Assembly (NCBI GenBank): GCA_000004695.1
Contig: CM000152.2
Span: 4,384,001-4,448,000 of the forward strand
Direction of reading: 5' to 3'
Source of the DNA: Dictyostelium discoideum
Taxonomy: Eukaryota
DNA: 64,000 bases
Shown here: one piece after another, positions 10,974 to 57,505 of the stretch
Layout: every line of letters starts with the position of its first letter
How positions within the stretch are numbered: position 1 is the stretch's first letter
Made by a program: the position numbers and the translations under genes
The notes under the pieces: generated by a model
The model's database searches: none
The model's input: only the letters and a program-made list of their open reading frames with translations
Told to the model about the DNA's origin: nothing

Positions 10974-11482
10974 ACCCAAATAAAAAAATAAAATAAAATA
11001 AAATAATTTACATTTAAATCGATAAACAAATAAATAAATAAATAAAAAAAGTTGAATTTCTTGTAATATTTAATTAATTTGTTTTTTTATTTTATTTGTT
11101 AGTTTACTCCTTTTGCTATGTTGGGTATGTTTCTTATTTTTTTTTTGGGTGGTTGATTAGTTTTTGGTTTTCATTTTTTTTATTTTAGCACTGTCTATCT
11201 AGTTTTTCCACCTTTTTTTTTTTTTTTTTGAATAAAGATAAAATGCAAAAACATGAATTGATTAGAAGAGGATCGTTTTTTTTTTTTTTTTGATATAAAT
11301 AAACTATTGTAGTATACAATTAGTATGTTATTTTTATTTATTTATTTTAGGTTTTTTAGTTTTTGTGAATTTAAAATGGTATGTTATTTTAGATTAGGTA
11401 ATTAATAATTGATTGGTGGTGTAATTGTTGGAATTGGTTCATTTGTGTTTATGCTCCATTCTTTTTTAAATTTTTTGAAGGT

Positions 11483-12292
11483 TTAAATAATTACAGTTAA
11501 ACCTGTATTTTTTATATTGTGCGTTTTCTGCAAAATGAAAATTAATATTGATAGTTGGATCTGGTTTAAATGCTTTGTTGTTTGTTTGTGGTTTATAAAG
11601 GGTGTGTATAATTTTGTTGTTTGGTTTTTTGTTAGTGACCAGTTTTTGTTTCCATTGCAATTTTTATATATAAAATATTTTAATTTGTCGTGGTTTATGA
11701 AGTTGATTGTGTGCTGACAATTGAAAAACAAATGACCATAGGGATCATTATTCATTTCATTGTTGCAAATGGGGCAAACTTTGTTGTGTAGATGATTAAT
11801 CGGAAGACATCTAGTAAAGAATCTTTGCATTGTATCCAGGCCTTTTGGATCTTTTAATTTTTGAATTTTGACAAATAGTTGGTCGTATGTGTATTTCCAT
11901 AATAGTTGTATTGATTGTTGGTGCGAAGTAAGAGGTAGATCTGAATATTTCTTTCCAATATAGTCTTTTGATTTGCATTGGTGATTGTTGAGTATTGTCG
12001 AGTAGATTTCTTTGAGTGTTGGTGGTAGTGAAATATTATTTGTGGTTAATATTTGAGAGGTTTGGTTTTTTGTTAATATTGGTTGTAGGGTTTGAACTTT
12101 ATCTTTTAGATGTCCAATTTGAGTTGCATAGTTTTCCCATTCTTTTTTGATTTTTATAAGGTATGGAGAAGAGATTGATTTGTTGATGATTTGATCCATC
12201 CAACTTATCATGTATATTGAATTGTTTGCAGATTTATGCATATCCAAATCTTTTGAGCAACTTGTAGTAATTGTATATTCCACATACCCCAA
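11483..12292 (-). CDS. Retroelement ORF2 C-terminal Cys/His-rich (zinc-finger-like) region
   Basis: 269-aa ORF ending in CPICNNEMNNDPYGHLFFNCQH (CxxC...HxxxxC pattern), typical of non-LTR ORF2 C-termini. Confidence 0.6.
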   Translation of the reverse strand: MGYVEYTITTSCSKDLDMHKSANNSIYMISWMDQIINKSISSPYLIKIKKEWENYATQIGHLKDKVQTLQPILTKNQTSQILTTNNISLPPTLKEIYSTILNNHQCKSKDYIGKKYSDLPLTSHQQSIQLLWKYTYDQLFVKIQKLKDPKGLDTMQRFFTRCLPINHLHNKVCPICNNEMNNDPYGHLFFNCQHTINFINHDKLKYFIYKNCNGNKNWSLTKNQTTKLYTPFINHKQTTKHLNQIQLSILIFILQKTHNIKNTGLTVII

Positions 12293-12599
12293 CCACCTTC
12301 TTTTAATGGTTTTAATGATCTATCATAACACATCAAAGGTAATTTTGCACGTGAATGGATGGTTGATGTGTTGTTTTCAATGGAATTGGTATTGAGAGTT
12401 GGTGATTCAGAATTTGCCGGAGAATTCATTAACCATGAGATTAATTTATTAATTTGAATTTCTTCATCTTTTGTAAATTCTTCAAGGTATGATAAATATG
12501 TTATTGGTGATAGTGAGTAGGTGTTTATGATGGTTGTTTTTGTTTTTAATGTTGTGCCACTAGTTTTCCATAGTACTAATGATTTATTCAGTGTTTTCA

Positions 12600-13865
12600 T
12601 TGTTTCTGGTAATTTCCTATGTAAACCATTATGATTAAAGAAATAGCCAAGGACTCTTTCTGATTGATATTTTTTGGTTATTGGTATTCTTTTTGATTGC
12701 GGAATGTTGTTTATTATGTGTTTATCTGTGATTTTGTGGGGGTTGATTTCTATTATTGCACTTTTGTCAAAATTTAATGATGATGATGTTGAAGCGCAGA
12801 AATTATCGAAATGTTTAATTGATTGTTGTTGTTGTTCGTAGTTGATGTTGTATGTTGCAAATTGGGTAAATTTGATTATAATTTGTGGATTGGGTGAAAT
12901 TGGTAATCCAATTATTGTATTGTCTGCATTTATTGTTCTTGCTAATATTTCAATTACAATTACAAATAAAGTGGCTGAGATTGGGTAACCTTGTTTTACA
13001 CCTCTTTTAATATCGAATTTTCTGGTCGTTTTACCATTAATTGAAATTTTTGCTTATGAGTCAGATAATAGCTTGTTGATTAAGTTTATTAATTTTATTG
13101 GTATACCAATATGAATTAATGTTCTTTTAATACTATGGTGAGAGATAGAATCAAATGCTTTAAAGTCAAATAGTGTGATGATATGAGGTTTTTAGATTTG
13201 AGGTAGTTGATTAATTCATTGATGTTGATGATGTTGTCTATGATGAATCTGTGGGGTACGAAACCAGTTTGGTTGTTGTTGATGATGAAAGGAAGTATTC
13301 TCAGAAGACGTGCATTGATTACTTTGGAGAGGATCTTGTAATCAGTGTTTAGAAGTGTAATAGGACGACGATTTGATATGAGTTAGGGGTTGCCTTTCTT
13401 GTATATTGTGTGTATAAGGCCTTCGGTGAATTCTGTTGTGATGTGGTGAGGGTTTTCTAGTATATCGTTGAATAATGTAGTGAAAATTGGTTTAACTTGG
13501 TTTAAATGATTAATGTAGAATGCATTTGTAACGCCATCTGGACCGAGTGATTTGTTGCAGCTTCAACTTCATCTTGTATAAATGGTGAGTCTAAACCATT
13601 CCAATATTCATTTTTTATGATGGGCCATGTGTTTAGCATGAGCTGGTGAGTAATTGGACAACATATTTGTAAGCTATATAGATTTGTGTAGAATTCAACA
13701 AAAGCATTTTCAATTTGGTCGGGGTCGGATGTAATGATGTTACCATATTGGATTGATTCAATTTTTGCATCTTTTGATCTTTTGTTTAGTATTGCTGATA
13801 GATACTTGCATCAATCCAAACATATTAAAAAAACATATTAGGTATTTCTCCATTTATATGTTTTT
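12600..13865 (-). pseudogene. Retroelement reverse-transcriptase region, disrupted by stop codons and frameshifts
   Basis: RT-like translation (...YLDDI-like blocks, LNKSLVLWKTSG...) can be followed on the minus strand. It is interrupted, for example by an in-frame stop near 13050 and by frame changes between the listed ORFs 12208..12600 and 13866..14942. Confidence 0.55.
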
Positions 13866-14942
13866 TTAAATGGAGAAATACCTAATATGTTTTTTTAATA
13901 TGTTTGTGTGGTTTTGATGTAATTTGTTTTTGTTACATATATTATTGTATTCAGCGATGCATTGTTCTTCAAGATGTTTGAATTTTGCTGCTTTTTCTAA
14001 TGGTATTTGTTTTACACGTTGAGTTTGTTTGTCTTTGTTATATTGATAGTTTTTTAGAGTTTTAATAATTTTTGATTTTACTTTTGACCAATTTGAAAAT
14101 TGATTGATTGATGTGTTATTGTGATTAGTTATTAAATGATTGATAATATTGATTGCTTCATGGTCATTTGCAGTACCAGATGATAATATCCATCTTTTCT
14201 TATGTTTTTTTATTTGAAAAGGTGAAGAAATTGTTGTTGATACTGGATTATGATCTGATAATGAAGATGGAATTTGGTGGACTTGTGAATATATATTTTC
14301 AGGGTCTATTCTATTGTATTGAGTATATATTCTATCTAATCTGTTGCCATGTGTATGAGTTGGAGTGTTTTTAAATTCACCTTGATCAATTAGACGGTGT
14401 TGGTATGTGTAGGATTGGATAATATCATATAATAGTGAATTGTCGTTGTGGATACAGTTGAAATCTCCTGCGATAATAGACACATGTTGGGATTGGTTTG
14501 GTATTGGGTTTGTTGAGTGGATGTGGGGAAGTGTTTGTAGTGAAGTTGAATATGAATTCTTTTTGATGGTATTATTTGATGCTGGTGCGTAAATTCCAAG
14601 AATACCAATTGGTAATTGATTTGGAAATATAACGTCTACTAAAATAGCTCTACCATCAATTGTTGATATGTGTTTGAGTTTGAGTGTGTTTGGGTTATGG
14701 TTAAGGATGATTACACCATTTCCTCGTTTGGTGACAGAGATGATATGATCGGGAAAATCATGTTTAAGTTGTAATGGTGATGAATTGAGTTCAGTGAGAA
14801 TTGAGATTGTTGGACGAGGTGGAAGTTTTGATATAAGTAGTTGTAGTGTGTCAACAGCTTTTTGGTAGGAATTGTGTTGATTGTTTGGGTTTTCAGTGAA
14901 TCCTCTACAATTCCATGTTATAAAGTTGATTTTTGAGCTCAT
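13866..14942 (-). CDS. Retroelement ORF2 N-terminal region: apurinic/apyrimidinic (EEP) endonuclease domain
   Basis: 358-aa ORF with EEP-family motifs (ITWNCRGF..., SIIAGDFNCIH, DRIY) typical of L1-clade non-LTR ORF2 N-termini. Confidence 0.7.
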   Translation of the reverse strand: MSSKINFITWNCRGFTENPNNQHNSYQKAVDTLQLLISKLPPRPTISILTELNSSPLQLKHDFPDHIISVTKRGNGVIILNHNPNTLKLKHISTIDGRAILVDVIFPNQLPIGILGIYAPASNNTIKKNSYSTSLQTLPHIHSTNPIPNQSQHVSIIAGDFNCIHNDNSLLYDIIQSYTYQHRLIDQGEFKNTPTHTHGNRLDRIYTQYNRIDPENIYSQVHQIPSSLSDHNPVSTTISSPFQIKKHKKRWILSSGTANDHEAINIINHLITNHNNTSINQFSNWSKVKSKIIKTLKNYQYNKDKQTQRVKQIPLEKAAKFKHLEEQCIAEYNNICNKNKLHQNHTNILKKHIRYFSI

Positions 14943-16312
14943 ACCTTACTAGGTTTGGCAGCACCAGTATTGACTGGTTGTGTAGTCAAGGCATTGCTGC
15001 TTCTTCTTGTATTTATTGTATTTGGAGTTGGTGCACTTGGTTTGTTTGGTTGAGATTGTAGAGGTTTTTGTGGTACAATTGTTGGATCGGTTGGATTGCT
15101 CATTGATAATGAGTTTTTCCCGTTATTATTATTTGAAGAATCACTTTTGTGTGAAATTTCATTATTGTTTTGGGATTGATTGTTAATATCAAGTGATTCA
15201 TTTAGTGTAGCTTTTGAACCACTATTTTGAAGTGGGTTATTATTGCGATTGGAACTTGCAATTTCGTTGATTGGTGGGGTGTTAATGTTGTTTTTAGGTG
15301 GATGATTGTTATTGTTAATATTTGGGTTTTTGAGAGCATTTTTTATAGTTGTTGCCATATCTGCATTTTTTGCATGTTGAATTTTGTGTTTAGTGACACT
15401 ACATGTTGCAGCTTTGATATATCTTGTGATACCAGATGGTTGTTCGATCTTTTGATCAACAATGTTGTGTGTGTGATCAATGTTATAATGTAGCTTTTAA
15501 ACGCAACAGCATATGAGTATGTGACAGTAAATGATTCAATTGATGTACAACTGGTGAATTTGGTGAGGTTGTTTATAATTGCATCGTTTGCATGTTTGGG
15601 TGAGTACGTTTGAATGAATGTTTTAATGATTGCATAATCATTTGATGATATTTCGAATCTATAGTTGAGTTTGTGGATATTTAGTGCAAGTTTGTTTTGA
15701 AGGTTGATTATTGAAGTTAATTTATCAACGTTGCAATTTACGAAGGCAGTTGCACCAATTATTTTAAATGCTGATGGCGACAGTATATCTTCGAAGAGTT
15801 TGTGAATGTTTTTGTGAATTTGTTGAATTCTTGTGTCATCTTTAGAGGTTAATTCTTCACGGATGTGTGGTTGATTAAAGTAACACTTAATGTTGATGGT
15901 GTTATTGTTTTTTTCTAAGAAGGAGAGTGGTCTTGTGATTGATGGAGGTGCAATGATATCTAATTGATTATCAAGTCCTTTGTTAAGTGAGAATTGATTT
16001 GTTGGGGTTTGTTTTTTAGGTGTGTCGATTTTTGCACTTTTGTTTTTTGTTGTTGAGGTTGTGGAGGTATTATTTGTATTGGTTGTGTCGTTATCTGAAT
16101 GATTTAACTGGAATTCAGTTGAGTGATCATCAGCCGTTGTTGAAAAGTATATAGGACGATAGCCCTTGCTTTATTGAGTAAAACTAGGGCAAAATTAAGT
16201 GGAATGAATGTGGTGGTGAAGATATAGCAGTGATTTATTTATTATATGAATAAATTCTTGTTTATTTCTTTGTTTCGTTTCTTTGTTTTGTTTCGGTTTT
16301 TATTTTTAGAAG

Positions 16313-16325
16313 AGGATCGAACACT
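16313..16325 (-). promoter_or_regulatory. External B box (ex-B), a TFIIIC-binding element, about 30 bp downstream of tRNA-Gly
   Basis: Minus-strand GTGTTCGATCCTC matches the B-box consensus GGTTCGANTCC and sits just 3' of the tRNA. Dictyostelium tRNA genes commonly carry such ex-B boxes. Confidence 0.6.
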
Positions 16326-16355
16326 TGATCTATTCAAGATTTTTTTAAAAATATA

Positions 16356-16426
16356 TGCGTATGCTGGGAATCGAACCCAGTTCGCATCCGTGGCAGGGAT
16401 GCATCATACCACTAGACCACATACGC
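16356..16426 (-). tRNA. tRNA-Gly (anticodon GCC), 71 nt
   Basis: Reverse complement folds as a canonical cloverleaf. Acceptor stem GCGTATG/CATACGC. Anticodon stem CATCC/GGATG with loop CTGCCAC. T-arm CTGGG-TTCGATT-CCCAG. Discriminator A. Identical to the copy at 29344..29414. Confidence 0.95.
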
Positions 16427-16439
16427 TTTTTTTATATTT

Positions 16440-17040
16440 CTGAAAAAAATTTACCAAAATTTATGTCGTAATGGGGAATAAAATCAACAGCCATTATCTG
16501 CGAAAACATCTGGAGAAGAAAATTCATGAAGGAATAACACTCAAAAACTTAAGAAAAGAACCACTAGTACACGAACTAAAGAAAACTCAAACAGCAGCCG
16601 GGAAAGAACAAAAAACAACATATACAAACTAATCAGACAAGAAAAAAAAGCAACCAATAACGAACAAAAAAAAAATTCAAAAACATCATCTCCCTGCAAT
16701 TCGAATGATTTAGCAAACACTGGAACTCACCACTACACACAGTAGCACTACCATCAAACCTCAATAAATATATTACATCATTCAACACACTCCGCACCCC
16801 CCAACTTTAAAAAAAAAAAAAAAAAAAACCATACAACCTTAAAAGGCACCTGTAATATTTAATAATAAAATGAGATATATCTCAAGAAGAAGCAACTAAA
16901 AATTGCGTTATTCCATCAAAAAAAAATTTATGTCGTATTTATAATCAGTCCTATAAAAAAACATTTAGTAATAATTGTTTATAATAAAATTAATAATACA
17001 TATATTACTTAAATAAAACCCGTACACATCCCTGGTTGGT
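16440..17040. mobile_element. Possible retroelement remnant (TRE5-like?) on the 5' side of tRNA-Gly
   Basis: About 600 bp of C/A-rich, non-coding, non-AT sequence begins about 15-50 bp upstream of the tRNA. It contains an internal direct repeat (AAATTTATGTCGTA at about 16459 and about 16917). There is no ORF. The position matches the preferred TRE5 integration site, but I cannot confirm identity from memory. Confidence 0.3.
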
Positions 17041-25128: not shown

Positions 25129-25216
25129 ATTGAATGATGATATATCACCGCCCCAGTCATAATTTTTGTGCTGATTCGGATTTACAGAACACGCCAGTTT
25201 TGCTTCTGACACCAAT
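25129..25216 (+). ncRNA. Candidate box C/D snoRNA (about 88 nt)
   Basis: 5' ATTG-aa-TGATGA (C box at 25135-25140)...CTGA (D' at 25171-25174)...CTGA (D at 25206-25209)-cac-CAAT 3'. The 4-bp terminal stem ATTG/CAAT flanks the C and D boxes. The surrounding region is an intergenic non-AT island with no ORF. Confidence 0.35.
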
Positions 25217-25412: not shown

Positions 25413-25482
25413 TTGAATGATGAAACAAACAGACCTGATCTGAACAGTCAATGTTGACCAAAACTAAGAAGTTCTGACTCAA
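25413..25482 (+). ncRNA. Candidate box C/D snoRNA (about 70 nt), about 200 nt downstream of the first candidate, same orientation
   Basis: 5' TTGA-ATGATGA (C box at 25417-25423)...CTGA (25435-25438, D'-like)...CTGA (D at 25474-25477)-c-TCAA 3', with terminal stem TTGA/TCAA. Confidence 0.3.
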
Positions 25483-29041: not shown

Positions 29042-29343
29042 TTATTGGTTTTATAATTTTTTAAAAAATAAATATTCTAATTCCTTTTTTTTCTTAATAT
29101 TTTAAACATAATTACTTTTTTTTTTTTTTAATTTTGGTTTATGGTTTTATGTGGAATTCATATTCTTTATAATAACTTTTGAACATAATACAAATTTTAT
29201 GGAATATAAATTCTAATTTTGGTAGATAATCTTGTTTATTTATAGTGGCTAAAACATAGAAAGACCAAATTACATAAATTTTCATTTTTAAAAAAAATAT
29301 TAAAAAACCAGATCATGTTAAAATTTTTATAAAACATAAAAAA

Positions 29344-29414
29344 GCGTATGTGGTCTAGTGGTATGATGCATCCCTGCCACGGATGCGAACTGGGTTCGAT
29401 TCCCAGCATACGCA
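29344..29414 (+). tRNA. tRNA-Gly (anticodon GCC), 71 nt, identical to the copy at 16356..16426
   Basis: GCGTATG-TG-GTCTAGTGGTATGAT-GCATCCCTGCCACGGATGC-GAA-CTGGGTTCGATTCCCAG-CATACGC-A. Canonical cloverleaf, anticodon loop CT-GCC-AC. Confidence 0.95.
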
Positions 29415-29445
29415 CAAATTTTAAATGCCTGATTTATTAGATCAA

Positions 29446-29458
29446 CTGTTCAACTCCC
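29446..29458 (+). promoter_or_regulatory. External B box (ex-B) about 32 bp downstream of tRNA-Gly
   Basis: CTGTTCAACTCCC matches the B-box consensus GGTTCGANTCC, in the position typical for Dictyostelium ex-B boxes. Confidence 0.5.
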
Positions 29459-29763
29459 ATTGAGATCGGTATATTATTTATTTTTTTTTGGTAATATATT
29501 CCGTAGGAACCTGATAAAAAAAAAAAAAAAAAAAAAAAAAAAACTAAATCGTATGATTTAACCAAGATTACACAAAAAAATTCCTTGAAGGTCTGATGAA
29601 GATTAAAGAAAAAAAAAAAAAAAAAAATTAATTATTCATTTCTAATGATAAGTTTTTCAAGATTAATAAATTTTTTTACAATCTTGTGTTTATAATTAAA
29701 AACTAATTATTGATTAATGCGTGATATTTATATTTTTTTTATTTTTTTATTTATTATTTTATT

Positions 29764-45231: not shown

Positions 45232-46227
45232 ATGTACTCAGAAGATCCAGAAATTCCTATGAATCAAGAACCATTTAATAACAGTAATAATGTATCATTT
45301 AATAATTTTAATAATTTTATGAATGTAAGTTATTTGTTTTGTTTTTTTTTTTTTAATTACATTTTATATGTGTATATTAATAATATAATTTTATTTTTTT
45401 GTTTTATTATTTTTATTATTTTAGCCAAATGAAGAGGAACCAACAGAAGAGAAAACAGTTGCACCAAGAACAGTACATATTGGTAATTTAGAACATAATT
45501 ATAAACATGGTTATGGTAAGAATGAGATTGCAACCTCTAGATACTCTAGCATTAGTCGTATACCGCGTATCATTGTATCACAATTGATTCGTTTAATCAA
45601 TGTTTACTTTATAATCATCATAGTTTTATCTTTTATTGATGGTGTAAGTCCAACTGGTAAATTTACAACATTAGGTCCTTGGTTAATTACAATTACAATT
45701 TCAGTTTTAAGAGAAATTATTGAAGATTTAGTAAGTGTGGTGGTGTTGTTTGTTTGTTTGTTTGTTTATTATTAATAATAATAAATAATAATTATATTAA
45801 TATATTTTTAATATTTTATTTAATATAGAAAAGACAAAAACAAGATGAAGCAGTAAATTATGGTACATCAGAAGTATTTAGAAATGGACAATTTGTTCAA
45901 ACATTATGGAAAGATATTAGAGTTGGTGATATTGTTAAAGTACGTAATAGACAATATTTTCCAGCTGATATTTATATATTTTCAACTAGTGAACCAGAGA
46001 ATGTTTGTTGGTTCGAATCAAAGAATTTAGATGGCGAAACCAATTTAAAACAAAGACAAGCCACAAAAGAAACAATTTATCTAAAAGATAATGCTGAATT
46101 ACTTTCAAATTTTTGTGGTTTAATTGAATGTAATTCACCAACTAAAGATTTACTACATCTTAAAGGTTCTTTCTTTTTTGATGATAATTATGTAATTTTA
46201 ACACCAAAACAATTATTATTAAGAGTA

Positions 46228-55810: not shown

Positions 55811-56920
55811 ATGGATAAATATTATCGTGTTCCAAGAACATATGATAATGATACAGAAGCAAATGAAGTTAGAATCGGAGGTGTACATAGTCAAGTTAGT
55901 TCATCAATTGAATATGGATTAAATTTATTTAACAAACCACATGATTCGATCATTGTTAAAGCAATTGGTAGTAAGATGATATCAAAAGCAATATTCACAG
56001 CAGAGATCATTAAACTTAGAGTACCAGGATTACATCAAATCACAGAGATAGGTACCACAGAGATCGTCACTCAATACATGCCAAAGGAAGAAGGTTTGGA
56101 TAAAGTTGAAATCTCAAAAAAGTCTGCCTTCATCAAAATTACTTTATCGAAAACACCATTGGATACAACTAATCCAGGTTATCAACCACCTCTTCCAGAA
56201 TCGGAAACTCAAAAGAAACCAACAAGACCAAGAGATTACTCACCACGTAGAACTAGAGGTGGATTTAGAGGTGGCAGTAGTGGTGGATTTAGAGGTGGTA
56301 GTGGTGGTGGATTTAGAGGTAGAGGTAGAGGTGGTGGTTTTAGAGGTAGTAGTTCTCATCCTTCAACAGCAACAGACAATACAGCAGCAACAACAACAAC
56401 AACTTCACCATCAACGTCTACTACATCACCAACAACAACGACAACAACAACAGCACCAGTTGAACAACAACAACAACAACAACAACAACAATATCAACCT
56501 TCAGATAGTGGATTCAGAGGTAGAGGTAGAGGTGGATTTAGAGGTCGTGGTAGAGGTAGAGGTGGATTTAGAGGTCGTGGAAGAGGTAGAGGTGGATTTA
56601 GAGGTCGTGGAAGAGGTAGAGGTGGATTTAGAGGTGGTTCACCATTAAATAGTAATTATCAAGAATCAGAATCATCTTCATCAACAACCAATACAACAAA
56701 TACTGCAACTACATCAGCAACAAATAATTCACCAAATCCAACAACAATAACAACAACAGAAGGTAATGATTTTAGACCAAGAAGAGGTAGAGGTGGATTT
56801 AGAGGTAGAGGTGGATTCAGAGGTCGTGGTGGAAATAGATCATCAAGTAATTCTCCTTCATCATCTCCAAATCCAACAACAACAACTACAACATCAACAA
56901 CTTCTCCTACTCCAAAATAA
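55811..56920 (+). CDS. Alba-domain (Rpp25/Pop6/Mdp2-like) nucleic-acid-binding protein with a long RGG/GFRG-repeat, S/T-rich C-terminal tail, 369 aa, apparently single exon
   Basis: The N-terminal about 110 aa (NEVRIGGVHSQVSSSIEYGLNLFNK...DSIIVKAIGSKMISKAIFTAEIIKLRVPGLHQITEIGTTEIV) fits the Alba fold pattern. The rest is GGFRG/RGRG repeats separated by T/S/N-rich linkers. Confidence 0.7.
   Translation: MDKYYRVPRTYDNDTEANEVRIGGVHSQVSSSIEYGLNLFNKPHDSIIVKAIGSKMISKAIFTAEIIKLRVPGLHQITEIGTTEIVTQYMPKEEGLDKVEISKKSAFIKITLSKTPLDTTNPGYQPPLPESETQKKPTRPRDYSPRRTRGGFRGGSSGGFRGGSGGGFRGRGRGGGFRGSSSHPSTATDNTAATTTTTSPSTSTTSPTTTTTTTAPVEQQQQQQQQQYQPSDSGFRGRGRGGFRGRGRGRGGFRGRGRGRGGFRGRGRGRGGFRGGSPLNSNYQESESSSSTTNTTNTATTSATNNSPNPTTITTTEGNDFRPRRGRGGFRGRGGFRGRGGNRSSSNSPSSSPNPTTTTTTSTTSPTPK
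56512..56640 (+). repeat. Tandem 30-bp coding repeat (GGTAGAGGTGGATTTAGAGGTCGTGGAAGA, about 4 units, nearly identical) encoding (GRGGFRGRGR)n
   Basis: Nucleotide-identical tandem units inside the Alba-RGG CDS. This points to recent expansion by slippage or unequal exchange. Confidence 0.85.
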
Positions 56921-57505
56921 AAAATAAAAAAAACAAAAAAAAAAAAAAACAATGTTCAATATTAATCTACACACCCTTAAAAATTAAATAAATAAAAAAA
57001 AAAAAAAAATAAAAAAAAATAAAAAAAAAAAAAAATACATGAATATATTATTTGAAAAACAGATATAAAAACTCGTTTAAAAACATTTTATATCTTTATT
57101 TTTATAAATATTTAATTTTTTATTGGGTATTAAATTATTTGAAAATAATCATGTGTGAAATATTAGTAGATAAAAAAAAAAAAAAAAAATTGATATATGT
57201 TGTAGTTGTTTATTCGTCATTCCATATTAATAATTAAAAAATAAGGCTTATTGGGTAAAAATATATTTTTTTTAAAAAATCCCAGAAAAATGATGTGAGT
57301 ACAATTTTTTAAACTACTTGGATATCAATTATTTTTAATTTTTTGTATTCTTTAAAAATAATATAAAAAAAAAAAAAAAATAACACCAATAAATATATTT
57401 AATATAAATAATTAATTTGATACTTTAAATGAATACATTAAACTTGATCCCAACTTTTTTTTATTTTTTTTTTTTCTCACATATTATAAAAAACCTTTCC
57501 ACACC

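Follow-up and report, generated by a model that had tools for sequence, protein, structure and literature searches.

We analyzed a 64,000-nt stretch of Dictyostelium discoideum DNA (NCBI GenBank assembly GCA_000004695.1, contig CM000152.2, positions 4,384,001 to 4,448,000 of the forward strand; hereafter the window, whose own numbering is used throughout), in which an earlier note, made from the letters alone, had described a tRNA-Gly(GCC) gene with a degenerate TRE3-type retrotransposon inserted just downstream. As the note had claimed, a 71-nt tRNA-Gly(GCC) gene is present on the minus strand at 16356-16426, where it was called by both ARAGORN and Rfam (RF00005, 63.6 bits). Its internal B box, GGTTCGATTCC, was located by motif search at 16367-16377, and reading of the sequence places its T5 RNA polymerase III (Pol III) terminator at 16347-16351, both on the minus strand. 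Downstream of the gene, on the same strand and with its 5' end beside the tRNA 3' end, lies a 5-kb element (11276-16305), which is very probably a fossil insertion of TRE3-B, a non-long terminal repeat (non-LTR), L1-type retrotransposon of D. discoideum.

The limits of the element, 5,030 bp in all, are given by a target-site duplication and an A16 tail. A repeat search detected the 14-bp sequence CGATCCTCTTCTAA with 100% identity at 16306-16319 (5' copy) and at 11262-11275 (3' copy), both on the minus strand, the second copy directly abutting the poly(A) tail at 11276-11291. Further exact 14-mers (D16 and D17) arise by chance in this AT-rich 6.3-kb region; what identifies the pair as a target-site duplication is its placement, one copy at the poly(A) tail and the other in the 50-nt gap that separates the element from the tRNA gene. 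Counted from the tRNA end at 16356, the duplication begins after 36 nt and the element after 50 nt. These values revise the earlier note, which had put the element at 11090-16290, its size at 5.2 kb, and its distance from the tRNA gene at 100-200 bp. The extra 186 bp that it had included (11090-11261) is flanking DNA and is ruled out as part of the element, as it lies beyond both the poly(A) tail and the duplication and has no family match. The termini and the target-site duplication that the note had proposed to map were found, the 14 bp being perfect at both ends.

Just past the 3' duplication, a stretch at 11213-11261 (minus strand) ends in gcattttatctttattc followed by A17 and resembles the TRE3-B 3' end, tttatttatatc followed by A16, at 86% over 28 nt. 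No flanking duplication was seen around this stretch, which could be a chance likeness, the DNA being AT-rich, or what is left of an older insertion that was extremely truncated. When the element, a 452-bp fragment on the other side of the tRNA gene (described below), and the flank at 11060-11261 were compared by blastn with the remainder of the window, no more copies emerged, the matches being confined to poly(A) and low-complexity sequence. Similarly, tblastn with 131 retrieved proteins against the window gave nothing significant outside 11405-16134.

Within these limits the element has the organization of a non-LTR retrotransposon, with two open reading frames (ORFs), the order APE, reverse transcriptase (RT), and zinc finger in ORF2, untranslated regions (UTRs), oligo(A), and no LTRs; apart from the duplication, the repeat search found no terminal direct repeats in it. 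The 5-kb stretch shows a strong C-over-G and A-over-T skew on the minus strand, which is also the strand of every coding feature that follows. The ORF1 remnant (14939-16137) was delimited by comparison with P0111 and P0003, both of which begin MADDHSTE, and its stop overlaps the start of ORF2 as ATGA at 14939-14942. The 5' part of ORF2 (13866-14942) retains an intact 358-aa frame that contains the APE endonuclease domain (Pfam PF03372, Exo_endo_phos, E = 3.9e-12), is 94.5% identical to P0111 over the APE region, and ends at a premature stop made by a palindrome. The RT domain (12748-13560), which is inactivated, was recognized as Pfam RVT_1 on three pieces and by alignments to P0004, P0005, and P0111. 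It is followed by the ORF2 C-terminal region (11402-12747), compared with the intact C termini of P0017 (501 aa) and P0118 (497 aa), in which the zinc-finger motif (HC; CX2C...HX4C) CPICNNEMNNDPYGHLFFNCQH occupies 11711-11776. The original ORF2 stop, TAA, is at 11402-11404, and a 3' UTR (11292-11401) leads to the A16 tail. Thus, the Pfam domains and the Cys/His motif, all on the minus strand, agree with the description of an APE-RT-zinc-finger element in the same orientation as the tRNA gene.

Lesions were scored against intact paralogous proteins. ORF1 has lost its start codon (ATG to ACG, 16135-16137) and is frameshifted by a 10-nt deletion at ∼15475 (near 15470-15480). The ORF2 frame is broken by a perfect 90-nt palindrome at 13817-13906, with a net gain of 58 nt. 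The RT region carries a 19-nt deletion at ∼13556, a TAA stop at 13383-13385, a loss of 7 nt at ∼13190, a second TAA stop at 13054-13056, a D-to-Y change that turns QGDP into QGYP (12985-12987), and a 12-nt deletion at 12855/12856 that removes DDST from the FADD catalytic motif, with the result that both catalytic aspartates are deleted. The ORF2 C-terminal region has a 19-nt deletion at ∼12245, a loss of 1 nt at ∼11603, and, at ∼11481, a deletion of 287 nt that shows AAAC microhomology. Altogether, ORF1 and ORF2 contain six frame-shifting lesions and two stop codons. The copy thus has neither the intact ORFs nor the catalytic RT residues of a retrotransposition-competent element, and it can neither encode its own proteins nor transpose autonomously, as the earlier note had judged from the stops and frameshifts that it saw in RT and ORF1.

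The insertions and deletions sum to -297 nt, which gives a reconstructed original of ∼5.31 kb without the tail and indicates that the original insertion was full length and not 5'-truncated. Compared with the majority consensus of the retrieved paralogues, 26 of 708 amino acid positions differ (3.0-4.5% by region), so that the divergence from a consensus that the note had proposed to measure is available at the protein level. Because the least diverged copies lie 0-1.4% from the same consensus, this copy is placed among the older members. Identical lesions are present in ACTFIT_011390, a gene model for this locus in a second assembly of D. discoideum, which argues against sequencing or assembly error.

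The palindrome lies inside the TRE3-B ORF2 linker and consists of two 40-nt arms, 100% complementary, around a 10-nt spacer. Comparison with the intact version in P0002 and P0111 shows that it rearranges the local HTNILKKHINGEIP-coding sequence in the order sense-antisense-sense-antisense, and its content is accounted for by inverted duplicates of the coding sequence around it and 9 novel nt. The palindrome looks like a template-switch or fold-back scar, and the gene model of the second assembly implies it as well.

Between the tRNA gene and the element is a candidate external B (ex-B) box, GTGTTCGATCCTC, at 16312-16324 on the minus strand, with the core GTTCGATCC at 16314-16322. The core begins 33 nt past the tRNA 3' end, downstream of the T5 terminator, and 55 nt beyond the start of the internal B box, and all 9 of its positions agree with the B-box core GTTCGANNC. 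Five matches to GTTCGANNC were counted in the 64-kb window, where 0.67 would be expected; two are the internal B boxes of the two tRNA genes in the window, one is the ex-B motif, and one of the other two is at 46011. Against the 11-nt GGTTCGANNCC, the ex-B motif agrees at 9 of 11 positions and, having two mismatches, is not listed at one mismatch. The claim that an ex-B box lies between gene and element is upheld in part; the motif is there, but the last 6 nt of its core (CGATCC) are shared with the duplication and recur at the far end of the element. The GTTCGA matches at 46011 and 53011 were called an RNA gene by neither ARAGORN nor Rfam; that at 46011 was considered as an extra B box or tRNA relic and was rejected, as it is inside protein-coding sequence.

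The second tRNA gene is an identical copy of tRNA-Gly(GCC) on the plus strand (29344-29415; ARAGORN and Rfam), and both of its flanks (29250-29560) are free of retroelements, which makes it an unoccupied comparison site. An ex-B-like CTGTTCAACTCC lies 32 nt behind it, and it carries TAGATCAACTGTTCAACTCC, which is related to TAGATCAAGTGTTCGATCC at the first gene and has an equal offset. That the motif is kept at both tRNA-Gly genes supports a conserved external B box over a chance match.

We then assigned the element to a family. By tblastn, it is 94-97% identical in amino acid sequence to many AX4 paralogues across ORF1, APE, RT, and the C terminus, P0005, P0111, and P0017 being among the proteins in this range. 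Identity is only 45-65% for other TRE-like families (from D. discoideum, D. citrinum, D. purpureum, and Acytostelium), and the comparison that gave 47-65% concerns the RT and C-terminal region. The name is supplied by DDB_G0291686 (P0103), which is listed as "DDB_G0291686_RTE, TRE3-B ORF2" (PMC12405889, Table 2). This protein is 97% identical to P0017, and P0017 in turn matches the element in four segments, three of them at 95-97% identity; the fourth (84% over 45 residues) falls at the -1-nt frameshift near 11603. The subfamily, which the earlier note had left among TRE3-A, -B, -C, and -D, therefore resolves to TRE3-B through the DDB_G0291686 link. The TRE3-B consensus is 5,279 bp, with 43 copies of which 9 are intact, and TRE3-B lies 34-188 bp downstream of tRNA genes (PMC5006619, Table 1); for TRE3 elements, the published distance is about 40-150 bp, or 14-305 bp across subfamilies (PMC5911963 and PMC5006619), and they have the same orientation as the tRNA gene, whereas TRE5 elements have the opposite one (PMC5911963). 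The present element is downstream of its tRNA gene at 36-50 nt, within the range of 34-188 bp, and in the same orientation, and so the note's TRE3-type reading agrees with the data in architecture, duplication, downstream position, orientation, and distance.

Several observations weigh against this assignment. The TRE3-B name depends on one named protein link together with consistency in length and copy number; when the literature was searched for more named DDB_G identifiers and for labels of the type "TRE3-x ORFn", only one usable link was obtained. The reconstructed length is ∼32 nt above the TRE3-B consensus, and the 5' terminus has no aligned second copy. The ex-B box is 55 bp from the internal B box here, compared with ∼100 bp in a review (PMC5911963); given this mismatch, the ex-B label is based on the motif itself and its conservation at the other tRNA-Gly gene. 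Finally, TFIIIC-dependent targeting is without experimental support for TRE3 elements (PMC5006619).

Since a single named link was found, we considered that the element might belong to another TRE3 subfamily (TRE3-A/Tdd-3, TRE3-C, or TRE3-D) and that the "TRE3-B ORF2" label might be mis-annotated. The TRE3-A consensus (5,229 bp; PMC5006619) is also near the reconstructed length. However, AAC27746.1, a member of the same 90% cluster that was deposited as "similar to HC domain of Tdd-3 and DRE", is called merely "similar to" those elements, its depositor having described it by similarity to TRE3-A (Tdd-3) and TRE5-A (DRE) only. The family of the element has at least 15 AX4 loci (in two clusters) and a length of ∼5.3 kb, whereas the TRE3-C consensus is 4,734 bp and TRE3-D has a 1,559-bp partial consensus and 11 copies, none of them full-length (PMC5006619). 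We therefore regard another subfamily as very unlikely and retain TRE3-B.

The assignment has consequences for the annotation of the locus. DDB_G0281355 (P0021) and DDB_G0281357 (P0001) are 100% and 99% identical, respectively, to translated pieces of the element, which puts the window on chromosome 3 of D. discoideum AX4; the NCBI models of both (11483-12600 and 13505-15358, minus strand) are fragments of the dead TRE3-B copy and not cellular genes. In the second assembly, the 1,241-aa model ACTFIT_011390 begins upstream of the tRNA gene, crosses the gene, and enters the element. It could be argued that the two reference models are genuine or domesticated cellular genes, for instance with the 358-aa endonuclease ORF under selection, as the APE frame runs for 1,077 nt without a stop, against ∼11 lesions elsewhere in the element, and both models were deposited as hypothetical proteins. 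Nevertheless, both models need invented introns to pass the ORF1/ORF2 junction, the palindrome, and the frameshifts, and the 358-aa ORF sits in a unit with a target-site duplication and a poly(A) end. Moreover, the divergence of APE from its paralogues (94.5% identity) is about equal to that of the dead regions, and by our own estimate a lesion-free 1.08-kb stretch is expected with ∼5% chance at the lesion density of the element. Because APE is as diverged as the rest and an intact stretch has this expectation by chance, the intact frame is not read as domestication, to which we give scarcely any credence. As a matter of annotation hygiene, two "hypothetical protein" genes of the reference thus derive from one dead TRE3-B copy.

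A coincidental association with the tRNA gene, the element being a non-targeted long interspersed nuclear element (LINE), a TRE5, or an LTR element (Skipper-2 or DGLT-A), can for practical purposes be dismissed: although Skipper-2 likewise inserts downstream of tRNA genes (PMC5006619), Pfam and the repeat search found neither LTRs nor integrase or RNase H domains in the element, its poly(A) and duplication are typical of target-primed reverse transcription, TRE5 sits upstream in the opposite orientation (PMC5911963), unlike the 5-kb element, and the protein family of the element is the one labelled TRE3-B.

The poly(A) tail, the duplication, and the full-length 5' end are the anatomy typical of target-primed reverse transcription, and from this anatomy a course of the TRE3-B insertion may be proposed. 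A full-length TRE3-B RNA would have integrated by this route, the APE endonuclease nicking the bottom strand at GTGTT/CGATCC, inside the ex-B box. Such a nick would lie ∼57 nt from where the internal B box begins and 36 nt past the end of tRNA-Gly(GCC). Reverse transcription of the poly(A) RNA would have started there, and a top-strand cut 14 bp further on would have produced the 14-bp duplication. On reconstruction, the empty site would have read ...AGATCAAGTGTTCGATCCTCTTCTAATCAATTCATG..., and GTGTTCGATCCTCTTCTAATCAATTC is the sequence expected at an orthologous empty site. By analogy with the TRE literature, the integration complex may have been positioned by Pol III factors (TFIIIC) on a B box; experiments on targeting are limited to TRE5-A (PMC5006619). 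The insertion falls within the ex-B box, ∼57 bp away from where the internal B box starts, which makes the internal B box the more plausible landmark here.

Whether the nick at the center of the ex-B box is systematic among TRE3-B copies whose distances are at the low end of the range is a speculation that we consider improbable. If it were, a factor bound ∼55-60 bp upstream, at the internal B box, would position the endonuclease, the ex-B box would be a preferred cleavage site, instead of or besides a docking site, and the unexplored targeting mechanism of TRE3 would be refined. Less likely than this reading of the ex-B box, the palindrome in ORF2 could be transcribed as a hairpin that feeds RNA interference-mediated silencing of TRE3-B. 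Overall, the element is a degenerate full-length TRE3-B in its canonical place, whose biology is already known and which raises no new question.

The upstream flank of the tRNA gene carries a separate insertion, a 5'-truncated, TRE5-type fragment of 452 bp on the plus strand (16471-16922), which the repeat search showed to lie between the two copies of a perfect 15-bp duplication (AAAATTTATGTCGTA; 16456-16470 and 16923-16937, plus strand). The 5' ends of the fragment and the tRNA gene face each other, 44 nt apart, which is the position and orientation of TRE5. The fragment contains an internal A20 run, and its last 54 nt fold into three stems in the manner of a C-module. Counted from the 3' end at 16918, positions 15, 26, 35, and 38 are T, C, A, and C; T15, C26, A35, and C38 are the four residues at which stems III and I of the TRE5-A.1 C-module were mutated (PMC3159450), and they fall in the corresponding stems of the fold of the fragment. 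A 53-codon ORF tail is followed by 290 nt of 3' UTR. This is too short for the B-module plus C-module of TRE5-A (∼427 nt) and fits TRE5-C, which has a C-module without a 3' B-module. The fragment is thus TRE5-C or TRE5-A, with TRE5-C somewhat favored. With a TRE5-type fragment upstream and TRE3-B downstream, the locus is a clean textbook case of a tRNA gene that has an insertion on either side; the duplications of the two insertions are intact, so that the sequence before insertion can be reconstructed.

Elsewhere in the window, Rfam scans identified two C/D-box small nucleolar RNAs on the plus strand, DdR13 (25131-25209, 100.4 bits) and, ∼200 nt from it, DdR1 (25414-25479, 94.8 bits). The 1-kb bin with the highest G+C in the window (0.378) is at 56001-57000; it has an A-over-T skew of 0.309, and its flanks are 12-16% G+C.

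Compared with known systems, the element is closest to TRE3-B, with which it shares the layout of ORF1 and ORF2 with APE, RT, and zinc finger, the poly(A) tail, the target-site duplication, the orientation with respect to the tRNA gene, a distance that falls within published limits, and 94-97% identity to members. It differs from the family in that this copy is inactive and 3-4.5% off the family consensus at the protein level, in that it is near the short end of the distance range, and in that its first-strand nick would fall inside the ex-B box. The most abundant TRE3, TRE3-A (Tdd-3; 5,229 bp, 67 copies), has the same architecture, downstream target region, and orientation; none of the retrieved proteins bears the TRE3-A name, and other TRE-like families are 47-65% identical to the element. 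TRE5-A and TRE5-C (the DRE family) are likewise L1-type, carry APE, RT, and zinc finger, and target the same tRNA genes, but they insert ∼50 bp upstream of them, whereas the 5-kb element is on the other side and in the other relative orientation and, unlike the 452-bp fragment across the tRNA gene, does not have the TRE5 placement of 44-54 bp upstream in opposite orientation.

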